A stretch of 64,000 bases of DNA from a virus (taxonomy: Duplodnaviria; Heunggongvirae; Uroviricota; Caudoviricetes). Numbering within the stretch: the stretch's first letter is position 1; every line of letters begins with the position of its first letter. A program made the translations under genes and the position numbers. Under the pieces are notes generated by a model. It was given only the letters and a program-made list of their open reading frames with translations. It was not told the DNA's origin and did not search any database. This document shows positions 2,200 to 64,000 of this stretch, piece by piece. The stretch spans positions 64,001-128,000 of the IMG/VR virus record IMGVR_UViG_3300010882_000011; one strand, given 5' to 3'.

Positions 2200-2217
2200 G
2201 AGATAATATTGGTGATA

Positions 2218-2242
2218 GTGCTCCTGTCTATGATGGGAGCAC
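2218..2242 (+). terminator. Stem-loop after MCP (attenuator or mRNA-stabilising hairpin)
   Basis: GTGCTCCTGTC-TAT-GATGGGAGCAC, 11-bp stem with two G-U pairs; no immediately adjacent U-tract. Confidence 0.55.
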
Positions 2243-2292
2243 ATAAACCTTTTAGATAAAATCTTAACAAGATAATTTGAATAAGAAATAAT

Positions 2293-3213: not shown

Positions 3214-3233
3214 TAAATAACAAGTAGAAACCT

Positions 3234-4121: not shown

Positions 4122-4154
4122 AAGAAAATAGAAATTTAAAACAAGTAAGAAATT

Positions 4155-32300: not shown

Positions 32301-34841
32301 AGTTTATTTAAAGAACTGCATCTTAATGATTTAAAAATGCCAGTAGATAAGTACCAAACACTTTTACAGACGTTAGGATCATACTACATGTTCAATCATC
32401 ATGATATTGAAGGTAAAACACTCAATGAGATTGGACAAAAACAACTGATGTTAAAGATGTTTTTAACAGATATATTTTCTTTTCAAGGAGGAAATACTAT
32501 TGTAAATGATCTTATGACGGGGTTAGTTTCTCGTCCTATATTTGAGATAGTTCCTTACGAAGATAAACATGGTTTATTAGTTTCGTCTTTTAATGTGAAC
32601 AATAAAAAGGTAAGTATTCCTTTGTTTATAACTGAGCCATCATATGGTGTATTAGAGGATGCGCGTTTTGTAAAAGTAAAAGGTCCAACAATGGGAGTGA
32701 AGGAGAATACTTTATTTCCATTAAAACTGAATGGTAGAATGCAATACTTCGAGAAGGTATTTGCTTTTATGGCTGGCAAGGATGTGGATGATACAATATT
32801 TGGAAAACATAACCAAAGGTTTTTACATGGTAGTCCAAACTACGACGAAAACGGAAATTATATAGGCTGAACTAAGGGTACAAAAGGAAAGGCGATGATT
32901 GCGTTTACTGATGATTTATTTACGGGTTATCAAGACTTTATTACCCTACTACAACCTTCCTATGCATCTAATAATTCCAGTAACATATCTGATATTTCTT
33001 TAGAGCATGTGAAAACTAGTGGTGATAAAGAAGGTATGACTTATTTAGTACATAAAGGTAACAAGTTTGCCTTAATGGGAGTTCAGCGTCCTATTACTTT
33101 TAGTGAATGAGTGTTACAAGCGCGGAAACAAATAAGTTTGTTAAAAAGAGGTTTCATTGCTACTAATTCCCAAACTAAAGATGAGAACTTCATTATTGAA
33201 TATGGTCTTAATCAGGCTTTAAATAAAGGTGGAAAAAAAGTTGTATTTGATAAGTTTGATAGTAATATTAATCAAATTGTATTCGAGAACACAACAGATG
33301 CATTTTTCACAGAATTGCTTAGATTAACTTTGCCAGATAGTGAAATATCTGATTATCAGAGATCAGAACTTAGAAAAGTGTATTCTAATCTTTGGGGATA
33401 TTTAATGCAACAAACCGAAAATGCGTTAGCTGGAAGTAAGCAATACAATAACAATGCTATTGTAATAGAAGTAATTAAAGAAAGTCAAGCAAGTAACGAA
33501 GCAGAAGAAAAATACAAACGTACGAGATGACAAGGTGGGAAGGGTAAATATTACATTCAGCTGAAGAAAACTAATAATCAAGGAGATAAATTAGTACTGT
33601 ATAGATTTGATGGTCATACTAAGACTGGGGATGGTATTGCTGAAATAGGAGTACCTGCTCAGATAGCAGAAGGAAACATTAATATATATAGTACGTTAAT
33701 GAAGTTTATTGAAGAAATTGGCAGAGATGATGAAAGTAAGCGATTTCTTGGAGAAGACCTAGCGGAAAATCTTAAGCCTGATAATATTCTGATGTATCTT
33801 GCCGAAATAACTCCTAATACTGTATTTGCAGCGTCTAGTAATAGAACAGTCGAAATGCTAACTCGTGGAATGAATGAAGGAACACTTGGCGAATTTGACA
33901 AAGTTTTTGAAGAAGTAAAGTTTAAAAATGACTTTTATGCAAATGATCCTGTAGATAATACAGCTATAAGTCCTTATATTAAACCTGTTATAGTTCCAAT
34001 AGAGGAATATCTAACAGATAGGCCAAATCCCACTTTTTCACAATTTAAAATTAATCGTAAATTTAAATCTGAGCCAGAAACTGAACAAACGTTACCTGCT
34101 ACAATTGAAACAACTTCGGGATTAACTGAAGAAATTTCTACGGAAGTATCTGAGGAAACACAAGTAAATGCAGAGGAAATAATTGAAACTACTTCTGAAA
34201 CTGTTACCGAAGATATTACTGAAGCAGAAACTCAACTTTCAGAAGAAGAAACTTTACGACAAACTTTATCTGATAACGACATAAATTACGCTTTTAAAAC
34301 TCCTATAAAAGATATTCAACAGTTAGTTCAACGTATAAATAAGAAATTACAAAGTACACAGAATGAGCCTATTCTTAAACAATTGACTTCTATTGATACT
34401 GTCGAAGCAACCTTAAATTGGAGTAATCTTATTGAGAACTTTCTTAAAGGAAAAAATATTGAATATAGTAACTACAATTTAATTACTGGAGATCCCAATA
34501 GAAATTACGCAGTGTTCTTCATTGAAAACAACGAAGTTCCTTCGGGATATAGGTTAATGAAACGGGATGGAGTTTGGGATATGTATGATTTTAATTCTTT
34601 TCCCCAATATAAAAACCTTGTTGATTTTATAAATGAGGACTATAATGGTCTGTATGTAACTCTTGATAAAATGTCAAGACAATATTTGGGTAAATTACTA
34701 TATGAAGGTGAAATCGAAGCAGAACATGCTCAAGGATTTTATGACTTTGTATCCCAAAATTTAGGAGATGAAAACCTATCTAGATTAAATAACTTAGTAA
34801 ATGAATACTTACTACAAAGAATAAAAAATAATGAGTGCTAA
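26364..34841 (+). CDS. Giant virion protein, 2825 aa, with internal SF1 helicase-like domain
   Basis: Eleven fragments in one frame joined through TGA; motifs GSAGSGKT, FLDEVS, AFGDLKQ, QGDEFDYV, YTMIQRS. Confidence 0.75.
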
Positions 34842-37800
34842 ATGTCCGCCTGATAAAAAATTTATACCTTTAATAAAACACATGCAAAATACCTTAAGCC
34901 CTGAAGAGTTTAAGGCGTTTATAAATGATAGTTTTGAAAATGCGGAACAACTATATACAGAATTAGTGGGGAATATCAGTTATAATGATTCCCCACCTCC
35001 TGTTATAGAAGTTGAAGAGATAAAAACATCATCTACTATGACTCCAGAAATTACTGTAGCAAATGACTTGTATGTTGGAGATACAGCATGGTTTAATACT
35101 ATGCATCGTGGATTTGTAAGAAAGATTACAGCGAGTTCTGTTTTTGATGTAGCTACAAAGACTTTCGTAAAGGCAAATGAAAAAACTGATAAGTTAACTC
35201 TATTAAATGAACGTATCTTTCAATATAAGTTGGAATTGTTGAAGACTCTGGCGGAATATACTGGAGATACATCTTATAATACGCAGGTGTTAAATGCCGA
35301 AGCGGATCCAGAAGTATTAACGGAAGTTTCAAACGGAATAATTTCCAATTTTGCCAACACAGTTAATAGTGCTAACTTTAAAGAGAAACCTCCTGTGTTC
35401 AAGGCAGCTTACAATGCATACACTATTTTAACTAAATTCGATGAATTGTTAGACAAACACATTCCATTTGTTAAAGTAAAAAACGAAGTTAAAAAATCTA
35501 ATAAATTTCATGTTGACAAATATACTTACATTGGGCCAGAAATTGACCAAATAACTAGCTGAAATGATAGTAATGAATTTGAAAGCGCCAATAAACATGT
35601 AAGTGAAACTGCCAAGATTCTATTAGATGTTATACCTGAAGTAAATATAGATCTAGATGAAGTAGATAATACTTCAATTACTTTAGATGGATTTAATTCA
35701 ATTATGACCAGAGTATTTTCTTCTCTTATCTATGAACCTCTAATGAAAGATTTACGCCCAGAGTTAGATAGAGGTGTTAATATCGATATGAATAAAGTAA
35801 TTAGTACTTATTTAGAACTTTCGAGAAAAAATCAACAGTTAGAAATTGAAAATACCACTAGTTTATACAATAAACTTCGCGGTATTCAAAGCTACATATA
35901 TTCTTCAAGTATGGATGCGGAATTGCGAAATATATTTACCCAAATGGCATATAAGATAACCCCTATGTCATACTTAGAATATATTCAAACAGACGGAACA
36001 ACTACAGCGAAGAATTTGAAAGAAGCAAGAATGAATAATGAGAGGTTCTCTCTTAGAAATATGCTTCAATCAAGAGTACACTTTCTCAATCAAAATCCTC
36101 AACTTTATAAGGGTTTATTAGCAAGACACAAAATCGAAATAAATCCCAATTCCGTTACATTTGATAATAATGGGGAAAGGTATTCTGTTGAGTATTGAAC
36201 AAAAATCTCACAGAAAAATCCAAATAAAAATGCTTTTGGTTTTGAGATAGATAGTGATATGTCTCCTCAAATTCTATCTAATTTAGTTTATGATTTTCTA
36301 TCTGACGTTATTTCTCCAGATTTTGAACAGTATGCTAGACAAACACATCCTCAAACTTCCGCTTTGTGAAATCCAGCGGAATTATATATGCCACTTGTAA
36401 CAGCCGTTATCTTAAATATTGAGAATAAAGGAATGTTTTATGACAAAGATGGTTTGGTAAAGACTCTGGGATATGATGAATATACTACTAAGTTAGCTAA
36501 TATTAATGTAGCTTTACATGGAGCTGATGTTGTAAATGTTATTAAGAATTCTGAAGGTAACAATTTGCCTTTATATAAACTAATAAGTTTGGCTTCCAAT
36601 CACAACAGTATGTTTAACAAAATAAGTCGAGAATTTGTTAACCAAACACGTGGCAGAAACAATATTTTAGCACAAAACGTGCTATTTAGGAATATGCAAA
36701 AGAATTTCCTGTTACCTCCTCAAATACGTAGCGATGTGGTGATTGGGAAAAGTTTCAAAAGTCCACAAGATTTAACGCAGTCTGAATTATTACGGTTATC
36801 TATCATACATGACTTCTTTCAGGGTATTACTGATTTAGAAGAAGGTGTAATTAGTCTTCAACCTACTACATTCTCAGATAAGGCTATGCACTTTTTATCT
36901 ACTTTTAATGTAAAACAAAACTTGGATTATGGATATAAAAAGTCAATTAATATACAGCAGGAAGTAGTAAGCTTTTTGGAGGGCAGTGGAAATCTTAATA
37001 AACTTACTGATGCTTTAATTGATATTAGAAGAGAATCTATTACTGCTCTTGTCGATAACATAGTTTCTGACTATACAGAAGTTTATAATCGAGATTTTAA
37101 AAATCTTGAATCTATTAATAAATTTATTGCAAACAAGAGAGTTGACGACATTAGAGCTGATTTTATAAGGGCAAATGTTCCCTTTACTGACGAGTTACAT
37201 GCTTATAGAGATCAAGTAAATGGTGTTGCTAGAGTAAATGAAACTATTGAAAATCATCACAACACATTCAATAACAAAGCCGAAGCTCAAAAACGACTGG
37301 AACAGAAAAAGCGAGAGTTTGCTTTTGCTTTACTGACAAATCCTTTATCTCTTAATAATTCTGAGGATATTATCCCAACTACCTACACACGTTTAAATGG
37401 GTGGTTTGATGCAGTTACAGAAAACTTAATCTTAGTTAAAACTAAAGAAAATGGGAAGGAAGTTACACTTGACCATATAAGTGACTTAATAATAAATGAT
37501 AATTTAAAGGTTGAATTAAATCCAATTGCTGAAGCTTATTTCTTGGTAGATAATCTACTATCAAATGCATATGATGAATTAATGACGGGTGGAATTTATG
37601 CTCATCCCAATAAAAATAAAAGTGGGGATAAATTATTATTCTATGAATATGGAGAAGCTCAACGATTAAATGCAAAATTCAAACGTAACGGTATTTATGG
37701 ATCTACTTACCATCCATTAGCACAAGGTCTAAACAATGGTGTTTTACGAAATGTCAAAATAGCCGTAATTAAGGATGTTCTTGGAACAACCTTTAATATG

Positions 37801-40800
37801 ATGGGACAGCAAAAAACTGATAATGAAGTAATGGATGGATCTGGTTGGTCTAGTCCGTACTATTCACGTATGGTAAATAATTCTTTATTAGATGCAAGAG
37901 CTGGGAAAAACAAAAAAACTATATTCCACGACACTGATGTTTACTATGGCACTCAAAAACAGTTAAAGTGAGCAGAGTATGAAATATCTAACATGATGAG
38001 GTCTCAAAATCCGTATAGTGATGTAAAAGCCGAGTTAATGTTTAAAAAAATGCATAATATTCCTTTGGAGACAAATGTAGATTTTAGTACATATTATCAA
38101 CGGTATAAAGACAAAAATGGACAAAGTAAGATCTATTATAGAGATATAAATGATAACAAAATCTATGCTATAAATGATATTACATACGATAATCAGACAA
38201 ACACTACCAGAAGAATAATTGAAGAATATTCTGAAGAAGGTATTGGTTTAAGAAACACCTTAATGGATGATTTTCAAATAAATACTTTGTATGACGCTGA
38301 TCAATTATTTGGGGGTGCATTTGCTTTAACTTATAGTACAGAATTTGGTAGATTTATTCCATCGGAATCCAATATTGATGTAGTATTTGATGCCATTGTA
38401 CAAGAGGATTTAAGAGACAAAATGATTGGTTATTTAGTAAATAAATCGGCAGTTAAAGTGGGTTCTACTAATCTTAATGAATCTTCTAAGTTTTTCAATG
38501 ATTATGATGCTCTTATTAAAGAAGGATTTAGTCATGAAGATGCCTTACAGTTAAGTGAACTTAATACAATGGACTTCTCTACAGAATTTGGCGGACTTCA
38601 ATTGGATTCAGACCACGACTTAGATTTTTCTGAGGTATCAGAGGTAACACAAATGATTTCTTCTTTAGAGGAAATGGGATATACACATGCTATAGTTAAC
38701 AATATCTACAATGATATAGCCAATGTAGTAAGAGAATCTCTAGTTGAATTTGATTCTGCTTTAGCTTCGGAAAATAATGAGGAATTGTACAAAATACTAG
38801 CTAAAAGCTTTGTTACTGCCTTTATGACTGGAGACAGAGACACAATAGGTTTAGCACAATCATTTGTAACACTTGCAAATCAAAGTTTACAAAAAGCAAA
38901 TTTGGAATATAAAATTCCTTTTAGTGCGGCAACTATTAATGGCATTTTTGTTTCTACTGTAGTTTCAAATATGGTGAAAGCAGGTATTAAAAGAAAATAT
39001 GCGGGTGTAGCGTCAGTTATTGCCCCATCTAATGGTATTTATCAATACTATAATATTGATGGAGCAAATTATGTATTTTCAGAATTACATTCACTTGCTG
39101 AACAAGCTGGCATACTTCCTATAATGGATGAAAACAATCGTATTATAAGGAGTGTTGTTGATCAGGCAATCAATGACGTTATGTTCAATTCAGCGATTGC
39201 TACTACTAATATGACAAACATATTAAATGGTATTCCTCATGCAATTGCATCTCCATTTAATAATCCATTTATTAAACCAATTCTTAAAGAAGATATAGAT
39301 TTTGAAGATACTGTAATTGCGTATAACCCCGTTGCGGGAACATATACAGTTGAAAAAATTGATTCCTTTTCCCAGTATGAAAAGGTTAAAAGAGGAACTC
39401 CTTCTACAATGTATCTTAATTGAACTATTAAACCGAAAAATTTAAAACAAGGAAATACCTTTTTTACTATTGGGGATAAAAAGTTTAATATCTATGATTT
39501 AGATTCTGTAAGGTTATCATTTAATTTAGCTAAATATGGAAATTCTATTAATTACAAAGACTTAGATGCAGTAGATCGCGAGCTCTTAACTTCAATATAT
39601 AAAACACGTAGGTTGGAAGAACAAATGCAGCCTAACGCAATTTTAAATAAACAGGGTTTATTAACTATCCTTAAAAAAGAAACACAATCTATTCTTAATA
39701 AATTGGCTAGTGGAGAACAAATACCAACCAGTATTGCTTTTAATATGCCAGGTGTTATGTATGTCGTACCTAGTAATGTACAAGTTGCTGCTGCTCAGAT
39801 AATGATGGGTAGATTGCAAGCCAAACAATTAGGATTACAACCAGGGGATACTGTTAATCAAATTAAGTCTAATAGAAACTTCTTCTACGATAGAATGTCT
39901 GGTAATTACAATCTATCCACCAATAATGGTGATAATATGGATTTGAATACTTATGATATAGTCCTATTTGATGGCAAAGGAAAGAAATTCTATGTAAAGT
40001 ATGTGGACAGCATCAATGAAATTATGGATTTTAACTTTACTGATAATCCTGATTTCCGAATAATTGATAATGAAAGTGTATGATATAACGGAACACTAGT
40101 TTCTGATGCTGGAGAAAAGATTTTCAAAAAGTACACTGATGGGGAAGGAATGACTCACGATATGATAGTAATTACTAACATGGATCGAATAAACGAGTTA
40201 ACTAAATCTAAGTTATTTGATACATATAAGTTAAATTATACAGAAGCCAACAAACAACGTTTATTACAGCATCAATTTAACTGGAATATAGAAAACAACG
40301 TTCCTGTAACTTTGAAAAGACCTTACGGGAACTCCTTTCACGAATTTACAGTTAATAGTTTTGATGGCTTAAGTCAAGTAAGTGCTGCAACCCTTAATCA
40401 AAATGAAATCTATACTTTTGATGACCGTCTACAAGATATTGCTACTATGAAACGTGATAGTTTTGAAAAACTGTTGACGTACGTAGGTTCCAGGATTCCT
40501 GCGCAATCTATGCAGTCTTTTATGGCGATGGAACTTGTAGCATTTACAGAGGATACTACAAACGTAGTCTATGTTCCTAAAGTGCAATTATGGTTACAAG
40601 GAAGTGACTTTGATATTGATAAGTTATACATTATGAGTTATGCTTTAAGTGATAGTGGAAGATTTCACTCTTTCTCTAACTTAATAAAAACACATAACAT
40701 AGATGCTGTTATAAAACTCCCTAGACCAGATGGTACAAAATATATTCGTAATAGAGAGGGAACAAATCTTGTTACTGCGGAAGATATTCAGAATACTCGA

Positions 40801-43800
40801 TACAACAATTTAGATGCTGTTGATAGAGTACTGAGGAGTGATTCTAATACTGTACAATTTGGAAGTGGTGTAACTAGGGAAGAGTCTCTAGAATTTATGA
40901 GAGTTTTAAACACTCATAGTTCCTCAAAGATTTCCGATAATATAGAGGATAATGCTTTGAAAAATACAATTGTTGATGGGATTATTAACGTGGTCAAGGA
41001 TCCCCGTAATCAAATTAACTTATTTACTCCAGTAAATATGGATGATCCTAGATTGGCAGCTGCTGATTCCAATCTTGGAAGAATGGGCAATAGGAATTCT
41101 ATTGACAATCCCGCAACTAAGGTGATGATGCAAATAGAAAATATGCTGGGTAAAAAAGTGGTTGGGATTACAGCTGTAGCTTTAAAGTCATTTTTCTTTT
41201 TGTCCAATTTCTATAATAATAAAATAGAGGAAGCGTTACAAGCATTTAGAAATGAAGACTATACTGAATTTTTCTATATAATGGATAAAATTGCCTTTAA
41301 AAATCCTCTCAATTATGACATAGCTGTGTTATCTAATATCAATTTTGATGATTTGTGAACAGAAATTCAACAAATTAGAGGAGATTCTCCATTGGAATTG
41401 ACTGTGCCAATTAATTTTAGAGGTGCCAACAATTTGGGAAACTATGTTACTAATCAACAGTTAAACGTTGAGGGCATGGTTAGGAAACTTCGAGAACTGG
41501 CTGATGTAACACCTGCTTCCTTGACTATCAGTGCAATTTTATCAGCAGCAACCGATAATGCTAAGGAGTTGATATTAGCGAAAATTAATGCAACTCCTGG
41601 ACTTGTTGACTTGTATAACTATCTTACATCTATTGGATATAGTTTTGATAAGATTGCCTCTATCATGACCTCCACCTTAATGGATCGTATTGCCCAGATG
41701 AGTAACAGTAATATATTTGATAATAGTACATACAGTTTTAACCTGAAAAATGCAATTGCATTTTATTCTGAAAACGAGGTACTACCAATGGTAGAGAAAC
41801 ATTTTCTAGTAAAATTCCTCGATGCTGCTGGTATCTCAACAAGTATGGCTAATTTAAATCCTACTCTTAGAAATACTGAAAATGTCAAAACCCTACAATC
41901 ATATCTGGCAAGGAAGGTGATTGAATCAAGGACTGCCAAATCTTATGCAAATGAGGGAACCCATGAAGAACAGCAACCTGATGATACATATGATGATACA
42001 TATGATTCAGAACAGGCCCAAAGTACTAATCCTACTAAACGTATTACTCCTAATAAACATGATTATAAAGCTGCTTATGTATTAACCAAGTATATTATTG
42101 AACGTAATAATTTGTTAGATGTTACTCCTGATAGCGAAAAAAAGGATTTACAACGAATATATGATGCAGTATTACCTGGTATTGAAGAAATGCAGTTAGT
42201 TGGTAAATTCACTGCTTTTAATAAGGGTATAAATACAAACTCCTTTGACAAGTACAATCAATTTAAGTCAATTGAAACTGGTGTTAATAGAGTAATACAA
42301 CAATACAATAGACGAAATAAAACTAATCATCCATCATTCAATTTAATGACCTTCTTAGCAGATGAGTCTTCCAGACAAACTTGGATTGATTTATATGAGG
42401 AAATGAAAACATATGCCAATCCACTAGATGCGGTAAATAATGTTCCACATTTTAGAGAAATGATTAAAATGGCTTATTATGTGGAAAGTGTTATTAACGC
42501 AGTATCTATGAAGGATAGGTTTACATCTAAAATAATTAACGAAGTACTACAAAAACCAACTCAAAAGTTAGATAAGAGGGAATATAAAGCTGTTGATAAA
42601 TACGTTAATGATGTACTAATATTTAATTGAATAAAACAATTAAACAGGGAGATAAAAATTCCAGTGGGACAAAAATACTTTACTAATAAGATTGGAGAAA
42701 TACTAACAAATAATCCTGTTGATCCTAGTGTTCCTGTTGATTCTAACAACCCTGTTAATCCAGAGAATTTTACAATTCCTTTGAATACTATTCAGGATAT
42801 AGCTTCATTTAAGATGTTAATGGATAATTTCATCATACCTAATATGAAAATACATCCTGACTATAAAAATAATGAATTTATTAAAAACCTTACTACAGGA
42901 GTCTTTTCTAATCAACACGGAATTCATCAGTTCTGGAAACCACCTATAGATATGATGCAGATTGATAGATCTTTTAGAAACCAAACAGCATACGAAAATA
43001 TGTTAGCTGGTTTTAATAATCTGGATGGCAAAAGTATATACGGTTGAAATGTGGTAGATCTCTTTTATTTGTATAATCTTGTTACAAACAAGGATGGTTT
43101 TGGAAGATCAGCCCTTACAAGATTCTTTGAAGATATTTACAAAACAAGTCACTCTAATCTTTTGATTGGAGACTTTTATAAATATTTAGCTAATTTGGAT
43201 TTTAGTTCAGATTCTGAATTAGAATATAATATAAATGATTTAAGATATCGAATAACGTTTGCATCAAATAATTCCTATAATAAATTTGAATCGTATCTTT
43301 CATCTAAAAGAGATGCAGCAAGTTTAGTTATGCGGGATCCTAAAACAAAAAGTGTTATAACAACAGTAGTAGAAAATGCAGTGGGTCCGAATGCGGAGTT
43401 CTTTACTTTTACTATGCCGTTTTTATTTAAACAGGTTGCTAAACGCGTTATTGGCGATGTAAAACCTATAGTTAATGAGGAAACTCCATTTTTTAACATC
43501 CCTATAAATCAAAATTCTTTAATGAAAGATGTGATGAACAATATAAGGGAACTTTATGGAGACAATATTTCAGAAGTTTATAATGATGAATTTAACGAAG
43601 AAACTGACCCAGCCATACGCAATGCAAATGCATACATAGAAGAGGGGAGAGCCTATATTAATATGGATAAATTAGACATTGCTTCTCCAGTGCATGAATT
43701 TACTCACATGTTATTAGCGGGATTGAAGGAAAGAAATCCAGATATATATTATCATCTATTATCATTGGTAAGAGACCATGAGTTGTATAGTGAATTGTTA

Positions 43801-44166
43801 AATAACTTGGCTTATGCAAACAAACGAGGGTCTGACATCGATGAAGAGGTATTTGCTACTATAATGGGAGAGTACTTTAAAAATAGAATGTACAACTGGA
43901 GTGGTAACGTAGAATTAAAAGGAATTGAATCTGAACTTCTTGATGTAGTCAAGGAAATATTTGGTTTAACTGAAGATATTAATGTAGATATTCAAAGCCT
44001 AATGGCAACTTCTTTAGATGATGTGATGCAGGTTTTTGGTAGTGTACTGTTTTCTAACAACATTGGAGACTTGATGGACATTGAGTTTGTCAAACTGAAT
44101 CAGAAGATGGCTACTTTGAAAGATAATCTGATGAGTCAGGAAATAATAAAAACAAACTGTAAGTAA
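34831..44166 (+). CDS. Virion two-barrel DNA-dependent RNA polymerase, 3111 aa, with C-terminal zincin motif
   Basis: GSRIPAQ...QGSDFDIDKLY catalytic motif (DFDID 40606-40620); HEFTH at 43693-43707; single frame under table 4. Confidence 0.85.
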
Positions 44167-54780: not shown

Positions 54781-54990
54781 TTATGCTACCCAAATTATTA
54801 TCATTTCATTATCTTGACAGCAAAACTGTCTTCGTGTTACATGCATGTATGCAGGAGTATGTCCACAAACATAGACTTCATCTCCAACGTTTGGAATCAT
54901 CATAGTATTATCAGTTTGATATATACTATTTTTACTAAGTGATATTCCTCCATACATAAAGTGAATTTTGTATTGTTTAGAAGTCTCCAT
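54781..54990 (-). CDS. Hypothetical protein, 69 aa (IPxVG motif)
   Basis: ORF packed between neighbours. Confidence 0.6.
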   Translation of the reverse strand: METSKQYKIHFMYGGISLSKNSIYQTDNTMMIPNVGDEVYVCGHTPAYMHVTRRQFCCQDNEMIIIWVA

Positions 54991-55882
54991 AATATACCTG
55001 ACAACAAAGTAAACCTAAATCTCTCCACATATCTACTACTTTTTGTCGATCATCAAAGACACACAAAACATTGTATTTTCCTTCAATATGTTTTTCGTAT
55101 AATTCTTTCTTTATAATTGCATCATTACGGTGATCACCGTACTCTCGCATATAAAGATCAAATTCTAAATAGGGTAGGTGTTTCTTTAACCAATTGAAGG
55201 TGTCCGCATAGCAATTTGGTACACATTCTCTTCCAGAAAAGAAAATTAGCTTTGTATTTGTGTCTTTGATCATTCGGCTAAGCAAATAAGATAAACGAAT
55301 ATCTTCTTTATCAGTTGATACTCGTGTATAATCATACGGACTACGACCAGTTCTAAGGGCCAGAGTTCCGTCTATATCACATATTACACAATCATTATCA
55401 ATACCCATACACGGATTTATCATTTTACGTGTATCAACAAACCTTTCATCAACAATAGGTTCACTTGGAAAATATTTTCGGAAAAATCTTTCTAACACCT
55501 TCTTACCAACAGCACGTTTTCCTTCCTTTTCACGCTTTGTATCGCGTTCTAAGGCCGTTTTCCAATCGACTTCAAACAGTTTAAACTCGATATCACAATC
55601 GTGATGATTTGCATAAAGTCTCCATTTATCAATTGTTTTAGGATTTAAGTTTGTAGCATCAATGATAACGCTTAATCCGTCACTAAGTGCAGCAGTTACT
55701 TGGAAGTCTTCAACACTAGTAATATAATCCTCCCTTTCGGGAACCCAATATATACCACTTGCTTCACGGATTTCGTCTCGTGATACAATCACGTAACTTT
55801 TATCCTTTGCCGCTAGCTCTCTAGCAAAGGTGCTCTTGCCAGAAGCAGGAACACCTTGTAATACTAATATTTTATTCTTCAT
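54977..55882 (-). CDS. Polynucleotide kinase-phosphatase (T4 PseT/Pnkp-like), 301 aa
   Basis: GVPASGKST P-loop kinase plus HAD phosphatase DIDGT and FDDR motifs. Confidence 0.85.
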   Translation of the reverse strand: MKNKILVLQGVPASGKSTFARELAAKDKSYVIVSRDEIREASGIYWVPEREDYITSVEDFQVTAALSDGLSVIIDATNLNPKTIDKWRLYANHHDCDIEFKLFEVDWKTALERDTKREKEGKRAVGKKVLERFFRKYFPSEPIVDERFVDTRKMINPCMGIDNDCVICDIDGTLALRTGRSPYDYTRVSTDKEDIRLSYLLSRMIKDTNTKLIFFSGRECVPNCYADTFNWLKKHLPYLEFDLYMREYGDHRNDAIIKKELYEKHIEGKYNVLCVFDDRQKVVDMWRDLGLLCCQVYYGDF

Positions 55883-57284
55883 TGTCTTCTCCTTCTTGTG
55901 TTTCCATGTCAATTACACCTTTGTCCAAATTTTCAGTTTCTTTTCTTAAGAAAGCTAATGATTTGAGTTTGTAAGCCTCGAAATTAGGTTGATCAACTCT
56001 TAATACAACCCCTTCTCTTGGAACTTTGTTGTAACAATATAAACAGTTCATTTCTAAATAATCATCTGTTAGATGTTTCAGAAATGCTTCTCTCATGCTT
56101 TCAAAGCTTTCCCATTCGGTTTCTCTGTTGCAAAGGTAGCTATCCACAGTTCCATAGAATATTTCTCTAACTGGCATTAATCCAATTCTTTCGCAATACT
56201 GTCGTAAGTTTACTGCTGACATTTCAGTTACAACTCCATCAACATTCGTTTGCGTAATACGATAGACGACTATTTTAAATAGATTTGCATCAAGCATTTG
56301 CTGTGGTGTCATTTTGTTATAATCGTAGATTTTTGGGAAATACTCACATCCATAGTCATATTCCTTCTGAAGCATTCCTCCGTTAGGCAAGTAACCAACT
56401 ACTTCAGCATAGATGGTCATTCCTTTCTTAAGATGTGGTCTTATTAATTCTAAAGTAATACCCCAGATATCTACATCGCCATAAAATCCAGATCCTAATG
56501 ATTTATTCAATTCAGGATCTTTAATTACTTTACGAGATGCAGAGAATATTTGGTACTTTGTATCAACAATATTAACCTTAATAAGTTTAAGAAACTTTTC
56601 AAATATAGAAAGTTTCTTTTTTACAAGTAGATTGCAATAGATAGCTGATGTTCCGTGCCATTTGTCAGAGATATGGATTAATGTTTCTGGATTGAACTTG
56701 TGTAAGTTCTTTTTTAATTGAGCAGTATCATCATGAAATCTGAATTGTTCTTCGACAATCACGTCTTCGTATTTCCTTTCCTTCTTTCTGTTTTTACCTC
56801 CAGTTCCAGGTTGACCTGGAGTACGAGAGTGCTTAGGAATATATTTCTTCACAAATTGATAGTCATTAATCACATCAAATTCAGTCCCAACTAATGCATC
56901 TATGTTTTTCGGTAGATCCATAAGTGGTAGTAAAGAAGAAATAGGCATTACAAATCCCTCAGAATCAAAGTCTCGAAGTCTAACACAACGTACACGTCTA
57001 TTCTTTTCAAAATATCCTCCTTTACAGGTAGTGTCGCGATTGAGATTACCTTCTGAGGTTACTCTGTATAAGTTATTACAGTGTAAATAATCGTGGTGTA
57101 TTTCACACTCAGTAGGAAAGTAGATGAATATCCCTGGTTCTGTATCAATACCCACAGAGATCACAAATCCATCTACTGTAGCTAATTTCATTCTATCAGC
57201 ATTTGGATGTGGTTTAAATGAATCAATTCTTGCTATTTTGGCAAGATAATTCGGGTTTGCGTTTTTACTTATCGTTAGGTTCAT
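55872..57284 (-). CDS. RNA ligase (DRB0094/Rnl2-like with N-terminal OB-like domain), 470 aa
   Basis: HPNADRMKLA N-terminus, motif I DKWHGTS, YAEVVG, REGVVLR...YKLKS. Confidence 0.8.
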   Translation of the reverse strand: MNLTISKNANPNYLAKIARIDSFKPHPNADRMKLATVDGFVISVGIDTEPGIFIYFPTECEIHHDYLHCNNLYRVTSEGNLNRDTTCKGGYFEKNRRVRCVRLRDFDSEGFVMPISSLLPLMDLPKNIDALVGTEFDVINDYQFVKKYIPKHSRTPGQPGTGGKNRKKERKYEDVIVEEQFRFHDDTAQLKKNLHKFNPETLIHISDKWHGTSAIYCNLLVKKKLSIFEKFLKLIKVNIVDTKYQIFSASRKVIKDPELNKSLGSGFYGDVDIWGITLELIRPHLKKGMTIYAEVVGYLPNGGMLQKEYDYGCEYFPKIYDYNKMTPQQMLDANLFKIVVYRITQTNVDGVVTEMSAVNLRQYCERIGLMPVREIFYGTVDSYLCNRETEWESFESMREAFLKHLTDDYLEMNCLYCYNKVPREGVVLRVDQPNFEAYKLKSLAFLRKETENLDKGVIDMETQEGEDNEE

Positions 57285-57552
57285 ACCAGCTGTTTACTAC
57301 TTTATGATAATTATGGTCAATACTACTCTGGCCAAGCAGAAAAGCTTCCCAAAGTAATACCTCTAACGGAGATGGGTGATCTTCGTTATCAAATATTTCA
57401 TTTATTTTGTTGTAGGTTTCATTGTTTCCGTAGCAATCTAGATCACTTAACCACTCTGTGAAGTGTATATCTTCGTGAAAGGAAGAAAGAAGGCCAACAT
57501 TAGGACCTCTCATGATTCTTTTTTGAAAGTCTGTTATAGGTTTATTTTCCAT
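57265..57552 (-). CDS. Hypothetical protein, 95 aa
   Basis: ORF overlapping both neighbours. Confidence 0.6.
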   Translation of the reverse strand: MENKPITDFQKRIMRGPNVGLLSSFHEDIHFTEWLSDLDCYGNNETYNKINEIFDNEDHPSPLEVLLWEAFLLGQSSIDHNYHKVVNSWYEPNDK

Positions 57553-58153
57553 GTAATTGTTGTGTAAAAATTGTTTTTAAATCCTGATAAAGTACTGGTT
57601 TGAAATTATTATTATCAACTCCAACATCATAACTTGGTAAAGGTCTATTAGCGATATAATCAACATCAAGTTGTTTGGTTGATAATGGAGAAGTGTGTGA
57701 ATGTCCGAAACAGTGATATACTCCATTCCATTGTCCTGGCCATGAGGTCATACAATAGTGAAACAAACAGAAATTAGTGTAAGTTTCTGTTTCCTCCTCC
57801 CATATAGAAAGATAAACTATATCATCAACAGATTCAAACCCATCATGATATATCTCATCTGGCCTATCATGGTTTCCTAGAATTAAGTACTTCTTCCCAT
57901 TCAGGTTATCTAAGTGCTTTTTCCATTCTTTCTTACTGCCAAAACAGAAGTCTCCTAAAACAAAAACGAGGTCATCGTTTGTGACAACCTCGTTCCAGTT
58001 CGTAGTAAGAGCCTCGTTCATCTCTTGACGAGATATAAAAGGTCTGTTGCAGTATTTGGTAATATTAAAATGAGAAAAATGTAAATCACTTGTAAAGAAT
58101 ACATTGCCTGTAAATTCTTTAGGTATTGTTATCCTCTTCATAGTTATGTTCAA
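57542..58153 (-). CDS. Calcineurin-like metallophosphoesterase
   Basis: SDLHF, LGDF, GNHD, GHSH motifs; exact start uncertain. Confidence 0.85.
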   Translation of the reverse strand: MNITMKRITIPKEFTGNVFFTSDLHFSHFNITKYCNRPFISRQEMNEALTTNWNEVVTNDDLVFVLGDFCFGSKKEWKKHLDNLNGKKYLILGNHDRPDEIYHDGFESVDDIVYLSIWEEETETYTNFCLFHYCMTSWPGQWNGVYHCFGHSHTSPLSTKQLDVDYIANRPLPSYDVGVDNNNFKPVLYQDLKTIFTQQLHGK

Positions 58154-58694
58154 ATAAGTATTCTATAGTTTCTTGCCATTCCCTGTATTTTTTAACAGCT
58201 TCATCGTATTCATCCCAGTATTCTGGTTTTAAGTAGTTTTGTTGTAGTGTAAAATATGAAGTTCCTATATTGTCTTTGTTATAGGTAGTCCACTTTCCCT
58301 CCGCCTTCATTGTTTCAAATAAGTCACCTGGTTTTTCACCATGTAGGTAACTTAATATGCTTGTCCAATAATGATCAGAACTTTCGTGTTCAGAATGTGG
58401 CCAATATTTCCACCAGTAAAAGCACAGCCCAAAGAAGACAATGCCGAATGTTGGAGGAAATTCATAGCGGAAATCATAACTAGTCCATTTTGTTTTGTAG
58501 AACAAATCCCAGTTAAAGATATAAAAACTTAACCAGATTGGAAGGTTAAATGATTTTCCAAAGATTTTGATATAATTCCCCCTTCTCCATATAGGTAAGC
58601 CTGGACTCTTTCTCCATCTTCCGAAGAAGAATGCGTTTTTCGGAGCTACAAAGACATCCTTTACCTTGTTGTAAGTTTTATTTATTTTTATCAT
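58119..58694 (-). CDS. Trp/Phe/Tyr-rich hypothetical protein, 191 aa
   Basis: 12 Trp, all TGG. Confidence 0.65.
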   Translation of the reverse strand: MIKINKTYNKVKDVFVAPKNAFFFGRWRKSPGLPIWRRGNYIKIFGKSFNLPIWLSFYIFNWDLFYKTKWTSYDFRYEFPPTFGIVFFGLCFYWWKYWPHSEHESSDHYWTSILSYLHGEKPGDLFETMKAEGKWTTYNKDNIGTSYFTLQQNYLKPEYWDEYDEAVKKYREWQETIEYLFEHNYEEDNNT

Positions 58695-58713
58695 TGTTTT
58701 TGATTTTATTCAT

Positions 58714-58795
58714 TTTTAGACGTTCTGGGAGACTTTGTGTCGATCTGGACCTGTCCCTCATGTTGGTACTCAAAGTCCCGCCAGAGTGCCTAAAA
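58714..58795 (-). ncRNA. Candidate structured intergenic RNA/DNA element
   Basis: 56% GC over 58721-58790; 14-bp plus 8-bp interrupted stem whose G-U pairs favour the - strand. Confidence 0.45.
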
Positions 58796-58820
58796 TCAAA
58801 TGAAAAGTGTATAATTTTTT

Positions 58821-59081
58821 CTATTTTGAGATGATTTCCCAAAGGTCATTAAACGAAATATCAGTTTGCTTAAAGAGATATTCCTCTATTAGTTCTTGGT
58901 TTTTTTCTCCAAATATATGTCCAATTAATTTGAATATAACATAATTAACATTGGAGTAGTAACTACATTCCTGTGAATCTATATCTACACCTACTACAGA
59001 TAACCTTTCCTTAATTTCTTCAGAATTTTGGTATGCCCGTAGAATTAGTAGAAATTCCTCTTTAGTCATTGTCGTCTTCAT
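58821..59081 (-). CDS. Hypothetical protein, 86 aa
   Basis: ORF overlapping the DNA ligase stop. Confidence 0.6.
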   Translation of the reverse strand: MKTTMTKEEFLLILRAYQNSEEIKERLSVVGVDIDSQECSYYSNVNYVIFKLIGHIFGEKNQELIEEYLFKQTDISFNDLWEIISK

Positions 59082-60243
59082 ATCTTACGTATTTGAATAT
59101 CGGTAAATTTGGTACTCCATCTGGTGTAAAGCCAAAGAATTTTACTGTACCTTGTTGTCCGATTATGTTGTTCATGTTTTTTCTGTATTCCTGTTTCAAA
59201 GCTCTATCGCCAATTGGCTTAGCTTCAAATGATCTTCCGTTAGGAGCTTGTAATTGAAATACAAAATCCTCCTCACGGAGACCTTCAACCATTCCAGTGA
59301 TGAGAAACTCATCATCCTGAAACATTTTAATTTTTATCATGCGGTTATCTCGCTTTCCAAATCCATATTCCTTATTAGGATTACGGATTATACAACCTTC
59401 ATATCCTTCCTTCACATATTTATCATGTAAGTGATCAATATCACTCCATGATGTAGTTTTTACATGTTCGCATACAACTATTTTGTCAGAGTCCTCAAAT
59501 ACATCTTGCATTTCTTCCAAAAGTGCAAGTCTTTCAGTAAATGGAACATCAGGAATAGCTATATCAAACACGTAGTATTTCAAATCACAGTGATGTGCTT
59601 CAAGTGTAATTTTTCTACATAATCCAGAAATATATGGTAATGGTAAACCATGAATATACAATTCACCATCTAATACAATGTCTGGATAAGATTGCATGAA
59701 TTCTATTAGTTTGGGATCTTGAAGAATATGTGTAGATGGAATATCATAATTGCCTCCACCTCTTGATGAAGTTTTCAACTCATCATCCTGCATTTTCATC
59801 ATCATGCGTACTCCATCGAGCTTTCGGCTACAATAATGCTCTTTCTCAAATGTAGAGAGAGCGACATCATTATAAGATTTACATTGCATTGGCTTCTGGA
59901 AGCCTGCTTGATCTGTAACCTCCTGTGGAAATACTTCGTTTGGATCAAATTCATCTAATGATGAATATCCAAAATCTTGTATATCCTTATATCCTTTATC
60001 AAGATATTTTTTAATATGAGAATTATATTCCAGATCAATTTGTTCGGCTAAAGTTCTTTTAGCTTTACCTTTGTTAACTTCGATTAGTGGTTGCTCAGTA
60101 ATTTTACCTCCAAGTTGAGAGGTTTTCCTGATGATTATAAATGAATGTAGTGCTTCATTCCACTGATAACAGATATCTACAACTCTAATCTTTCCTTTGC
60201 TGTCTCGTGTAATTAGTATATTATTCATTCTCAATGGGTTCAA
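59062..60243 (-). CDS. ATP-dependent DNA ligase
   Basis: SRKLDGVR, VLDGELY, YEGCIIR, IKIKMFQDDEF, VKFF...G.P..P OB motifs. Confidence 0.9.
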   Translation of the reverse strand: MNPLRMNNILITRDSKGKIRVVDICYQWNEALHSFIIIRKTSQLGGKITEQPLIEVNKGKAKRTLAEQIDLEYNSHIKKYLDKGYKDIQDFGYSSLDEFDPNEVFPQEVTDQAGFQKPMQCKSYNDVALSTFEKEHYCSRKLDGVRMMMKMQDDELKTSSRGGGNYDIPSTHILQDPKLIEFMQSYPDIVLDGELYIHGLPLPYISGLCRKITLEAHHCDLKYYVFDIAIPDVPFTERLALLEEMQDVFEDSDKIVVCEHVKTTSWSDIDHLHDKYVKEGYEGCIIRNPNKEYGFGKRDNRMIKIKMFQDDEFLITGMVEGLREEDFVFQLQAPNGRSFEAKPIGDRALKQEYRKNMNNIIGQQGTVKFFGFTPDGVPNLPIFKYVRYEDDND

Positions 60244-60457
60244 ACTCGGTAGAAATAATTCTTTCCTCTACAGGTAGTAATTCGTTACCAAATTGACCTT
60301 CCCTTTCTCCCCACTTCTTAGCTTCTTGAACTATAAACTGAAGATCATCTTGGTCAATCTGGTTATACCTCGCTACTTTATCAAGTATTTCTCTTGTTTT
60401 CTGCTTTGGAGAACCATTCTCTTTGAAGTTAGATAAGGTTTCGTATTTATAAGGCAT
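60221..60457 (-). CDS. Hypothetical protein, 78 aa
   Basis: ORF overlapping neighbours. Confidence 0.6.
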   Translation of the reverse strand: MPYKYETLSNFKENGSPKQKTREILDKVARYNQIDQDDLQFIVQEAKKWGEREGQFGNELLPVEERIISTEFEPIENE

Positions 60458-60608
60458 TTTCAGTAGGTTTATATTTCCTCCTCTTGTATCTCTTTTTAGA
60501 TTCTACAATATTGGAGTAATTGATTGATTTGCCATGAAGTTCAAATTCCTCTTCTCTTGCTTTACGTTTAGCTACTTTCATGGCATCTTTTATGCGATTT
60601 CTTTTCAT
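60447..60608 (-). CDS. Small basic hypothetical protein, 53 aa
   Basis: MKRNRIKDAMKVAKRKAREEEFELHGK...; fills the gap; below the track cutoff. Confidence 0.6.
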   Translation of the reverse strand: MKRNRIKDAMKVAKRKAREEEFELHGKSINYSNIVESKKRYKRRKYKPTENAL

Positions 60609-60609
60609 G

Positions 60610-62034
60610 TTACTTAATTAACATATGTATATCCTTTCTTGTTCTGGACATACTAACATATTGTAATTGTCTTAATTCTTGCTTATTTGTACATCTCAAT
60701 ATATTTTCCATATCAATCAGTACATTGTCAAATGAGCTTCCTTGACTTTTGTGGGTACTTAGACAGTAACCGTAACTCAAACTTTTATTCCGAATTACTC
60801 TACCATCAAAAATCATATCAATTGGAGTTAGAAATGATCCCATGATTTTGAAATACTTAACCCACAACTTATTTCGTTTTTCCTTACTTCTCTCGTTTAT
60901 GGCATCAAACCTTGCTCTCTCTACACAATAAGCTATTGAATTAAATACTTCAAGGGAATTTTGTGTTGATAGAACATAAACATGCAGAAAGAATTCCTCA
61001 TAAACGGAATATAAATCTAATAAATAACCTTCCGTTCAAATTCCACAAATTTCCTTTTGATGGGGACATATACCTGTGACTATGTAATCGTTAGAATTAT
61101 ATAGTTTATAGGATAATCCTCCTCTGGAAAATGAATAGTGCATATTATCTGACTTATATTCACAAGAATCATGGGCCATTAATATATCACCAAGATTGTA
61201 TTCATTGTCGTTTTCAAAAATCATTTTCCTAATTACTTTATTAAAGGCATCTACTCGTTTATTAGTATATGCTAGTAATTTAATGAGATTGGGATTTTGA
61301 TCTTTAACTGATTGCTTAAATAGAGAAATGTTCTTACCCAATAATCGCTGCCAATTATTATATATTACTAGATTTCCATTCGGAGAAATAATTTCTGAAA
61401 AGTTTTTCTGGCTTTTAGTTCGCAGTTCAGTTAGAACATCAAGTATAGGATTATCATCTTCTTGTCGATAAATTTTACTTAACTGAAAAGTTGAGTCAAT
61501 CTTTGTAGCTTTAGACAATTTGTTATCCTTAACTGGTTGTAACTGACAGGCATCTAAAATCCATATGATTTTACAATCTCTTCTTTTACACTGTTCGACT
61601 ATATAATCAAATAGCACTTCATTTATCATTGAAGCTTCATCAATTAATAATATTCCATCTCGTGGAATACCGTTGTCTAATGTATTAGAATTGAATTGCA
61701 GATCTTTGAAATCTAGTTCAAGAATGTCAAGAGTTGGTTTAAGTGAAAGTAGTTGATGTACTGTAATAACATCCCGTTCAGTTGATTCCGAAATAACTCG
61801 TTTGGCTTTATGAGTTGGGGCAGCAATTATATAAGATAATCTTTTTTCTTCAATATATCTTATTATTAATTTAGTAATGGTTGTCTTTCCAGTTCCAGCA
61901 GATCCAATTAGAGAACATTGTTTTTGATCAACATCCTCTATAAAATTAAAAATTGAGAGAAGTACATCTCTCTGTTCTTCTCCCAATTTAAATTTTAAGT
62001 ATTGTTTCTCTAAATTGTCTATAGTGGGATTCAC
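60610..62034 (-). CDS. SF1B (Dda/RecD-like) DNA helicase, 474 aa (one TGA=Trp at 61036)
   Basis: GSAGTGKT, DEASM, IYRQ, THKSQGSSF, YVSMSR; two track fragments in one frame. Confidence 0.88.
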
Positions 62035-62417
62035 TATTTTTTCAATTCGCCCATTACTCCACGACTGACTCTATCATCAATTCGTCTTTTACAGGCAGTA
62101 AGAAACATTTCCAATCCTGTTTTCATTGGTTCATATTGGTCATGCGGATAAACTGCATTAAGCTTTTCTAACCTATCTAATAGAATATAGGCTAGTTGCT
62201 CGCTCTGAAGACCTGGTAAAATATCACCATTATCAAATTTCTGAACAAATCGAATTCTTATTTCGTCATCAATATACTCAGTTTTTCCTTCGTTGTAGCC
62301 AAGAGTTGGTTTACACCAGTACTCATGTGCTCCGCCGTACGTATCATCAAGTTTTACACTTATCGTGCATTCATCACTTGGATAAACCTTCCAGTCTAAT
62401 GTTTTGAAAAATTCCAT
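62034..62417 (-). CDS. Tad1-like (Thoeris anti-defence sponge) protein, divergent, 127 aa
   Basis: GGAHEY, I-x-F-x-Q, G-x5-L-x2-I-x2-DRL and RR-x2-DR-x2-R-x-V-x-G match the Tad1 pattern as recalled; ATG 62417 one base after the dut stop. Confidence 0.6.
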   Translation of the reverse strand: MEFFKTLDWKVYPSDECTISVKLDDTYGGAHEYWCKPTLGYNEGKTEYIDDEIRIRFVQKFDNGDILPGLQSEQLAYILLDRLEKLNAVYPHDQYEPMKTGLEMFLTACKRRIDDRVSRGVMGELKK

Positions 62418-62418
62418 G

Positions 62419-62889
62419 TTATTTCTTATCAGTTGATCCAAATCCACCTGTTCCTCTTTCAGTTTCAGACAGATCTTCTACTTCTTCAAACTCAATTGCA
62501 GGATAAGGTAAAATCATTATTTGACCTATCTTATCTCCAATTGCATATTGCTGATCGCAATTTAACCATGTTTCCATGTGTCCATTTTCGTTCTCAAACG
62601 TTACTGGTCTAAGAACTCTTTTGTAACGGAATAATAATTCTCCACGATATCCACTGTCAAGGACTCCTACACTGTTACATAGTAATAGGTCTTTTTTACT
62701 GTTGCTGGATCTTGGGAAAATTAGCATTACGTGTCCTTCTGGAACTTCAAAAGAAAGTCCAGTTCCATATTCAACATACTCGTCTGTATTATTTAGAGAG
62801 ATAGCTGTTATGTCCATCCCTGCGTCTCCTGGTTTAGAGTAACTAGGAATAACTGCGTCAGGGTGTATTTTTTTTATTTTAACTTGCAT
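62419..62889 (-). CDS. dut: dUTPase (trimeric), 156 aa
   Basis: AGMD, PRSS, GVLDSGYRGE, RGTGGFGST motifs; ATG 62889 in TAATG overlap. Confidence 0.92.
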   Translation of the reverse strand: MQVKIKKIHPDAVIPSYSKPGDAGMDITAISLNNTDEYVEYGTGLSFEVPEGHVMLIFPRSSNSKKDLLLCNSVGVLDSGYRGELLFRYKRVLRPVTFENENGHMETWLNCDQQYAIGDKIGQIMILPYPAIEFEEVEDLSETERGTGGFGSTDKK

Positions 62890-63062
62890 TAAAATACTAT
62901 TATTATAAATGAAATGGTTACCCATATCAGAATTCTAACGATTAGAATTTCGTTAGTAAACTGTGAGAAATCAATCTTCTTTATGATAGCATCTTTGCTT
63001 ACGATTAATGCATTTCCTATTACTTCTAATAGAACCATTAACGCAATTATAAATTTAAGCAT
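62889..63062 (-). CDS. Small two-TM membrane protein, 57 aa
   Basis: MLKFIIALMVLLEVIGNALIV...EILIVRILIWVTISFIIIVF*; TAATG coupling. Confidence 0.6.
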   Translation of the reverse strand: MLKFIIALMVLLEVIGNALIVSKDAIIKKIDFSQFTNEILIVRILIWVTISFIIIVF

Positions 63063-63528
63063 TTCTTCAAAACTTTTCAGTTATATCAACAAATTGCTCA
63101 CCATTGATTTTATATAATCTTTGGTTCGTGTTTGGGTTATTCAAAGCACCTAGTTCCTCAACATAGGGGCCGAGTTTGATGTAATCAAATGCAGAAAGAA
63201 AACTGGCATTTTGATATGCATCTTCCAATTCCTTTCTTCCAGAATACCAGGCTGTTTTTATTCCATGTACTTCTTTAACTGTATAAGCCATTAGCCATAC
63301 TTCATGGGCAGTTTTATCGCCACCCATAAAACATAAACAAGTAGTATTTGGATACTTTTTCAGTAACCTTTCTACTACTTTCATATCAAAACGTTTGCCG
63401 ACATTTTCCTGTAATTCAGGAGTATGGCAACCTTTACAATGATAAGGACAGTTAGACAAATTGATTGCTAACGTTGTTTCGTCTGGTATCTCTGTAAATA
63501 CAATATCGTATTCAGTATATTTAAGCAT
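63055..63528 (-). CDS. nrdG: Anaerobic ribonucleotide reductase activase (radical SAM), 157 aa
   Basis: CPYHCKGC, CFMGGD, DYIKLGPY, TNQR; ends DITEKF-W(TGA)-RNA*. Confidence 0.9.
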
Positions 63529-64000
63529 AATACCGTTGTTTTGCCTCTACTTGTCTTCCTTCACTAAATGCACTTACTGGTCTTAAATAACCAATAATTC
63601 TTGTCCATTGTGTAATCTTATGACTTCCGCATTTTGGACATTCATTTAGTGGTCTTTTCTCAATATATCCACAACTATTACATTCACTATTAGGAACATT
63701 GAACGTAAAGTAGCTAGTACCTTCCTTAATAGCAAAGTTAATAACATTTCTATATTGTTCCTGACTTAAATGATCAGCTAAATTAATGTGGGCACCAACA
63801 CCGCCATCAAGCTTATCAGTATATTTCTTACCATGAAGTGTGAGTTTATCAAACACATTTAAGGTGTTATCCTCTGGTTTATAGAAGTATGAATTATAAC
63901 AATTCCTATCTAAAGGAACCCAATAATTGTCTTCCTTATCCCAATTATAGTTTTTGATGCCCAATCCTTCTGCTGGAACAAATTCAGTATTGAACTTGAT
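63521..64000 (-). CDS. nrdD: Anaerobic ribonucleoside-triphosphate reductase, C-terminal part (5'-partial)
   Basis: TEFVPAEG, GGVGAHINL, CPKCGS Zn ribbon, glycyl-radical loop TRIIGYL. Confidence 0.9.
   Translation of the reverse strand: MKFNTEFVPAEGLGIKNYNWDKEDNYWVPLDRNCYNSYFYKPEDNTLNVFDKLTLHGKKYTDKLDGGVGAHINLADHLSQEQYRNVINFAIKEGTSYFTFNVPNSECNSCGYIEKRPLNECPKCGSHKITQWTRIIGYLRPVSAFSEGRQVEAKQRYYA

Follow-up and report, generated by a model that had tools for sequence, protein, structure and literature searches.

Tad1 proteins, including the founding Tad1 of Bacillus phage SBSphiJ7, are encoded by phages and prophages only, and their non-redundant homologs in IMG/VR numbered 1,587 in a 2025 survey by HHpred against Protein Data Bank (PDB) entry 7UAW (PMC12393519). 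CbTad1, from a Clostridium botulinum prophage (PDB 7UAV, 7UAW, 8SMD and 8KBE-8KBH), contacts 1''-2' glycocyclic ADP-ribose (gcADPR) through 11 residues, namely H29, G55, R57, R78, F82, F87, N92, R109, R113, G120 and N122 (Leavitt et al.). Li et al. described a pocket shared by gcADPR and cyclic dinucleotides (CDNs) with F82, N92, R109 and R113, a separate cyclic-trinucleotide (CTN) site with R90 and T97, and the hexamer interface; they found substitutions in the gcADPR site in 12% of Tad1 orthologs and in the CTN site in 6%. In CmTad1 (PDB 8KBB-8KBD), R88 and T95 take part in binding of the cyclic trinucleotides cA3 and cAAG as well as in building of the hexamer. Here we describe a Tad1-like gene on the minus strand (62034..62417) of a 64,000-nucleotide stretch of phage DNA (the window; bases 64001-128000 of the 170,238-bp IMG/VR record IMGVR_UViG_3300010882_000011). 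Profile comparisons and structure models support its assignment as a divergent member of the Tad1 family. The gene adds a member to an established family and is no new kind of system; since Tad1 sponges are well described, and so many homologs have been listed, we do not consider it a new mechanism either.

The open reading frame (ORF) consists of 127 sense codons, from the ATG at 62417-62415 to a TAG stop at 62036-62034. An alternative GTG start at 62447 would give a protein of 137 amino acids (aa), but because it overlaps the upstream dUTPase gene, and because the closest homologs are likewise 127 aa long and begin at the same Met, we take the ATG as the start. The protein carries GGAHEYW at residues 28-34, IRFVQK at 55-60, PGLQSEQLAYILLDRL at 68-83, YPHDQYEP at 90-97 and KRRIDDRVSRGVMG at 110-123. 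These are the motifs from which a sequence-only reading had identified a divergent Tad1-like sponge at this position; the 127 codons and each of the motifs are present as quoted. The Tad1 motifs with which it had compared them are found in CbTad1, in the form printed by HMMER, as GGAYHEY, IKFQKG, GVIDSDLLEIVRDRL, FSSRENA and RRVEDRIERNVLG. A chance ORF was considered and rejected on the homology statistics. A scan for promoters and terminators around the gene gave no signal above shuffled expectation.

Homology to Tad1 becomes visible stepwise with the depth of the profile. As a single sequence, the protein finds CbTad1 among PDB chains only at E = 0.3 (phmmer), with an alignment that is collinear over residues 28-124. 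A profile of 50 close relatives reaches CbTad1 at E = 1.6e-5, and a diverse profile of 90 members at E = 2.2e-13 (53.5 bits; the alignment spans positions 11-122 of both), followed by CmTad1 at E = 5.1e-10; the next match among PDB sequences is at E = 0.17. With 124 versus 127 aa, CbTad1 and the Tad1-like protein are collinear from end to end, at an identity of 22-25%, while identity to CmTad1 is 14-20%; the epithet "divergent" is thus apt. Its own family (the protein is P0001 in our clustering) comprises 183 matches when clustered at 90% and 144 representatives when clustered at 50%, and the names given to relatives by their sources are "hypothetical protein". The sole match in PHROG is phrog_2428 (E = 1.7e-5, with distant relatives down to 4e-25), which is annotated as "unknown function" and has no functional label, and the only match in the phage GenBank collection, MT835470.1, is unannotated. 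Pfam scans of the protein and 50 relatives returned no relevant family. When distant relatives retrieved by the protein were compared to Pfam PF24729 (Acb2_Tad1_hairpin; cut-off 27 bits), one (P0249) scored 32.8 bits, above the cut-off, and another (P0233) 21.5 bits, below it. At the profile level we therefore regard homology to Tad1 as secure, with the clade lying just beyond the reach of routine annotation.

The structure models lead to the same assignment. An AlphaFold2 model built on the family alignment has a mean predicted local distance difference test (pLDDT) score of 94.6 and a predicted template modelling score of 0.84, and consists of an N-terminal beta-sheet and two long helices, the same fold as in CbTad1 and CmTad1; DSSP assigns strands between residues 4 and 57, and the two helices to 72-89 and 95-119. 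In a Foldseek search of the PDB, Tad1 chains take up the first 20 places (E from 7e-7 to 9e-3, template modelling scores 0.58-0.75), and the next match has E = 0.27. VIA-align superposes the model on CbTad1 with Z of 10.3/10.2 and root mean square deviations of 3.8/2.9 Å over 120/116 residues, and on CmTad1 with Z of 9.8 and 3.0 Å over 116 residues; Tad1 chains as a whole range from Z 9.2 to 10.3 over 109-123 residues, versus Z 6.4 for the best unrelated chain, which matches in the helical hairpin only. In the viral structure library BFVD, the top matches include an "Acb2/Tad1 hairpin domain-containing protein". Acb2 (T4 Vs.4, PDB 7UQ2), a sponge directed against the cyclic-oligonucleotide-based anti-phage signalling system (CBASS), has the C-terminal helical hairpin in common with the Tad1-like protein, and the hairpin in the model of a relative superposes on 7UQ2 with Z 7.2. 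Unlike the Tad1-like protein, Acb2 is without an N-terminal beta-sheet. Membership in Acb2 was rejected, as this sheet is present and no Acb2 entry occurs among the full-length structure matches.

Two-chain prediction gave an extensive symmetric homodimer with a score of 0.95, compared to 0.00 for the best of 3 controls; contacts agree between runs by at least 99%, and the pLDDT of the partner is at least 92. In a calibration, 20 of 30 proteins with structures solved as same-chain pairs attained this mark, compared to 1 of 23 with single-chain structures; these counts apply only approximately here because our prediction used its own alignment and included ADP-ribose (the small molecule itself is unscored). 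The fold comparison and the oligomer prediction, both of which the sequence-only reading had proposed as checks, therefore point the same way as the profiles, and its assignment to the Tad1 family stands.

In the model, the N-terminal antiparallel beta-sheet (residues 4-66; 62220..62408 on the minus strand, as are all following segments) holds H31, Y33, F57 and, in the region of the loop between beta4 and alpha1, the clade-invariant K60. Helix alpha1 (residues 72-89; 62151..62204) carries D81, R82 and L86, and is joined by the YPHDQY loop (residues 90-95; 62133..62150), with Y90, D93 and Y95, to helix alpha2 (residues 95-119; 62061..62135), which contains K99, A108, R112, R116 and R119. The tail GVMGELKK (residues 120-127; 62037..62060), with G123 and L125, is the counterpart of the lid that closes over the ligand in CbTad1.

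For a position-by-position comparison with CbTad1, we used the 90-member profile alignment and a domain alignment of 212 near-full-length clade members. Five of the 11 gcADPR contacts are identical, namely H31 (H29 in CbTad1), R82 (R78), R112 (R109), R116 (R113) and G123 (G120), and so is R119 (R116 in CbTad1). These five contacts are kept in 96-99% of the clade (His31 in 204, Arg82 in 210, Arg112 in 210, Arg116 in 211 and Gly123 in 209 of the 212 members). The contact F87 is conservatively changed to Y90, preserving the aromatic ring, and CbTad1 G55, a backbone contact, is aligned with K60, a near-invariant residue in the same loop region as CbTad1 R57.

Taken with the fold, this pattern makes it likely, on sequence and model grounds, that the protein is a divergent Tad1 that acts as a homo-oligomeric sponge for a nucleotide alarm signal of the host. 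Two chains would form an intertwined dimer with a basic pocket at the interface, lined by H31, K60, R82, L86, Y90, Y95, K99, R112, R116 and R119, together with G123 on the C-terminal lid. This pocket would enclose a nucleotide alarm signal made by enzymes with TIR domains or by cGAS-like enzymes (CD-NTases), and the signal would thereby be withheld from the defence effector, so that the phage could replicate. As for the ligand, an ADP-ribose-derived TIR signal is perhaps the leading candidate, put forward tentatively; a CDN is a somewhat weaker possibility, and something else altogether is possible to the same degree.

Several points weigh against this proposal. Four of the 11 gcADPR contacts differ from CbTad1: F82 is replaced by L86, N92 by Y95 and N122 by L125, and R57 is without an aligned equivalent. 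PF24729 detects neither the Tad1-like protein nor the 50 close relatives, nor anything else in the whole phage genome, at E <= 10, although at 22-25% identity Tad1 membership is still possible without a match to this model. The dimer score may reflect the memory of the prediction model, since Tad1 dimers have already been solved. Of 84 sponge homologs in the 2025 survey, 19 had no inhibitory effect on any of the seven systems tested (PMC12393519). Among five lysogen genomes that we examined, none encodes ThsB_TIR (PF08937). Finally, the gene sits between genes for nucleotide metabolism and replication, outside any obvious anti-defence island.

The substituted positions also bear on which ligand a sponge of this kind would bind. 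The replacement of the central FSSRENA segment, noted in the sequence-only reading, is real, and it changes the CTN-binding R90 to D93 and the adenine-reading N92 to Y95. The CTN site is not conserved in the clade: an Arg is found at the position of R90 (R88 in CmTad1) in 6 and a Thr at that of T97 (T95 in CmTad1) in 20 of the 212 members, although the protein itself retains T97 as T100. Likewise, the Trp at the hexamer interface (CbTad1 W105) is present in 6 members, while 167 have Ala, as does our protein (A108). Because the Arg and Thr of the CTN site and the hexamer Trp are not conserved, we expect the protein to have no cyclic-trinucleotide site, and it is possibly a dimer instead of a hexamer. 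Position 95, the equivalent of N92, is Asn in 149 of the 212 members and Tyr in 28, including our protein. Among these Tyr95 members, 24 have Lys or Arg at position 99 (Lys in our protein), compared to none of the 149 with Asn95, and about 13% of clade members have the Tyr95/Lys99 pairing. In the tree, which is based on a short protein, a single independent Tyr95-Lys99 pair falls on supported branches; the analysis is thus underpowered, and the pairing is an association and not demonstrated co-evolution. With N92 replaced by Tyr95 together with Lys99, we nevertheless expect base recognition to differ from that of CbTad1, and the ligand specificity may be altered.

An extension of this argument is that the protein is a true Tad1-fold sponge whose ligand lies outside the known Tad1 repertoire, for example a Bacteroidota-specific product of a TIR or nucleotidyltransferase enzyme, read by Tyr95/Lys99 in a dimer without a trinucleotide site. 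The Tyr in place of the adenine-reading Asn, its association with Lys/Arg99, the loss of the CTN site and interface Trp, and the changes F82 to Leu (Leu86 in 201 of 212 members) and N122 to Leu (Leu125 in 204 of 212), both fixed in the clade, speak for this reading, as does the finding that many sponge homologs in the published survey are without a known target (PMC12393519). Yet the residues that bind phosphate (arginines) and those that read the ribose hydroxyls (His and Arg) have been retained, in line with an ADP-ribose-like or dinucleotide ligand; the link between Tyr95 and Lys99 may reflect phylogeny; and the characterised Tad1 homologs vary widely in their CDN spectra while staying within the known ligand classes (Li et al.). 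We therefore consider a ligand outside the repertoire rather unlikely.

The same substitutions could be read as signs of decay, i.e., of an inactive Tad1 relic without a function of its own, given that several canonical pocket residues are replaced. The replacements are, however, fixed in the clade and not scattered; 17 positions are conserved at 90% or more among the 212 near-full-length members, the ORF is intact, the fold is predicted with confidence, and the gene has kept its position in a sister phage, all of which makes a relic very improbable.

The assignment as a sponge for a host alarm signal also agrees with where the gene is found. Like CmTad1 and the Tad1 of SBSphiJ7, the clade is confined to phages and prophages; it has more than 200 members, from phages and prophages of Bacteroidota. 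Across 69 IMG/VR loci the neighbours differ and synteny is not conserved, with polA or a phosphoesterase gene common to only about 11 large related phages. In bacterial assemblies we found 26 loci, nearly all from Bacteroidota (Alistipes, Bacteroides, Prolixibacteraceae, Draconibacterium, and isolates of Hymenobacter and Zeaxanthinibacter), the exceptions being three loci on short contigs of metagenome-assembled genomes. Integrated copies occur in the Hymenobacter and Zeaxanthinibacter isolates and on Mb-sized contigs, and three Hymenobacter lysogens among the five lysogens examined encode proteins with SMODS and TIR_2 domains. Such a distribution is that of a mobile accessory gene for counter-defence against Bacteroidota hosts, and it supports the earlier suggestion that the protein is aimed at this phylum.

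About 98 of 260 family members are extended at the N terminus, by segments that fall into at least three unrelated types. The most frequent type measures about 74 aa, shows a GNWRI...QGIF...IGLP...WCE pattern and is found in Mu-like prophages of the Alistipes type (e.g., L070:8001-8228 (+)). Its model is confident (pLDDT about 90) and shows a small Sm/SH3-like beta-barrel, while the Tad1 part of that model is poorly predicted. A fold search with this extension gave generic small beta-barrels only (Z about 7.5), and its matches to Atlas features were all below 0.9. Being fused to the sponge, it is a candidate second anti-defence module.

A third way to explain the protein is a role of the Tad1 fold outside defence, in which it would buffer or sense a nucleotide metabolite connected with the neighbouring genes for dUTPase, ribonucleotide reductase and replication. 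The gene is indeed tightly packed. Upstream, the TAA stop of the dUTPase gene (62419..62925, minus strand) lies 1 nt before the ATG of the Tad1-like gene, so that the two are probably co-transcribed. Downstream, the GTG start of a gene for a Dda-like superfamily 1 helicase (60610..62034, minus strand) overlaps the TAG stop by 1 nt, and the contig of the closest relative retains the dUTPase in the same place and the whole order NrdD-NrdG-dUTPase-Tad1-like-helicase-ligase. But neither dUTPase, helicase nor NrdG adjoins the gene in any of 72 other loci. In Mu-like prophages it follows a DNA methyltransferase gene, as seen for a 200-aa version of the family in a Mu-like gut prophage, where the gene ahead encodes an N6/N4 DNA methyltransferase. 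Moreover, every characterised Tad1 is an immune-signal sponge. A metabolic role thus appears improbable, and we retain a counter-defence sponge as the preferred interpretation.

The analysis gives a defensible function to a protein that its sources label hypothetical and that Pfam misses, and defines a clade of Tad1 relatives from Bacteroidota phages, in which one variant of the pocket is fixed and a Tyr95/Lys99 subtype can be distinguished. The HHpred search against 7UAW used in the 2025 survey would probably capture this clade. In the literature library that we searched for Tad1 or Thoeris together with crAss-like phage or Crassvirales, no paper was found to describe a Tad1 gene from a crAss-like phage, with one match judged by its title and abstract. 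If the assignments hold, large TGA-recoded crAss-like phages of a non-human (termite) gut would carry immune-signal sponges in the arm of the genome that keeps to the standard code. Since about a quarter of tested sponge homologs have no known target, the clade and its subtype are reasonable subjects for ligand screening. It is conceivable, if doubtful, that the Tyr95/Lys99 subtype is a dimeric sponge without a trinucleotide site that has been retuned to an immune signal bound by no characterised Tad1; if so, it could be used as a capture reagent for a still-unknown defence nucleotide of Bacteroidota, as CbTad1 was for gcADPR.

With regard to the phage itself, the sequencing runs that contain the stretch completely are termite gut metagenomes, and the runs listed for it include no RNA data set. 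Reading TGA as a sense codon turns fragmented plus-strand frames into ORFs of 1,244 to 3,113 aa and makes both PolA and the helicase complete. In addition, a tRNA gene with a UCA anticodon is present at 162826-162919, which confirms recoding of TGA to Trp. When read with code 4, the ORF at 11470-16296 matches Pfam PF25731 (crAss_MUZ, the Crassvirus muzzle protein) with E = 5.5e-32. A 3,111-aa ORF at 34831-44166 (+), open only with TGA as Trp, has DFDID at residue 1926 (about 40606-40620), a catalytic motif characteristic of crAss-like (virion) RNA polymerases (PMC13573597). PHROG and Pfam matched no family on the giant ORFs except the muzzle protein, and a DNA search of the phage GenBank collection with the virion genes found nothing. 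From the muzzle match, the DFDID motif and the recoding, we conclude that this is a large, TGA-recoded crAss-like phage; the sequence-only reading had likewise called it crAss-like.

The same reading held that the Tad1-like gene, being free of TGA, is translatable from the start of infection. There is no in-frame TGA in the ORF, and its two Trp codons are both TGG. For one gene of 127 codons this says little, since the recoded genes here carry about 1 TGA per 100 codons, so that about one would be expected. The argument gains from the surroundings: the gene is part of a TGA-poor block of minus-strand genes (54781..64000) with 1 TGA versus 45 TGG codons, compared to 110 TGA versus 94 TGG in frame in the other recoded genes (Fisher p = 2e-12), and over the whole genome TGA is scarce in the minus-strand arm and plentiful in the virion arm. 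Early translation is therefore a reasonable suggestion for the block, weakened by a single codon in the overlapping helicase gene, whose full length requires that the TGA at 61036-61038 is Trp (W333). Because the UvrD_C_2 domain lies after this TGA, the codon must be read through.

The helicase codon is also the sole in-frame TGA in the block from 54.8 to 64 kb, and in the contig of the closest relative the helicase is called as a single gene of 466 aa. The gene for the NrdG-like radical-SAM activase (63067-63528, minus strand) ends at a TGA under table 11, and code 4 adds only 4 codons, to 63055. At the other end of the window, four plus-strand genes at 772-5333 have no TGA, with all 15 Trp codons being TGG, compared to 92 TGA versus 72 TGG in the genes from 7.7 kb onwards. 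Within the TGA-poor block, minus-strand genes for a polynucleotide kinase/phosphatase (54977-55912), an RNA ligase (55872-57284) and a metallophosphoesterase (57542-58153) are clustered, and the cluster is kept in the sister phage. The cluster resembles a T4 Pnk/Rnl-type module for tRNA repair, which is a known means of countering anticodon nucleases. At the ends of the record, bases 1-50 recur at 170072 and bases 1-20 also at 170162, i.e., as repeats spaced about 90 bp apart, which suggests that the repeat is either terminal or arranged in tandem over the junction of a circular genome.

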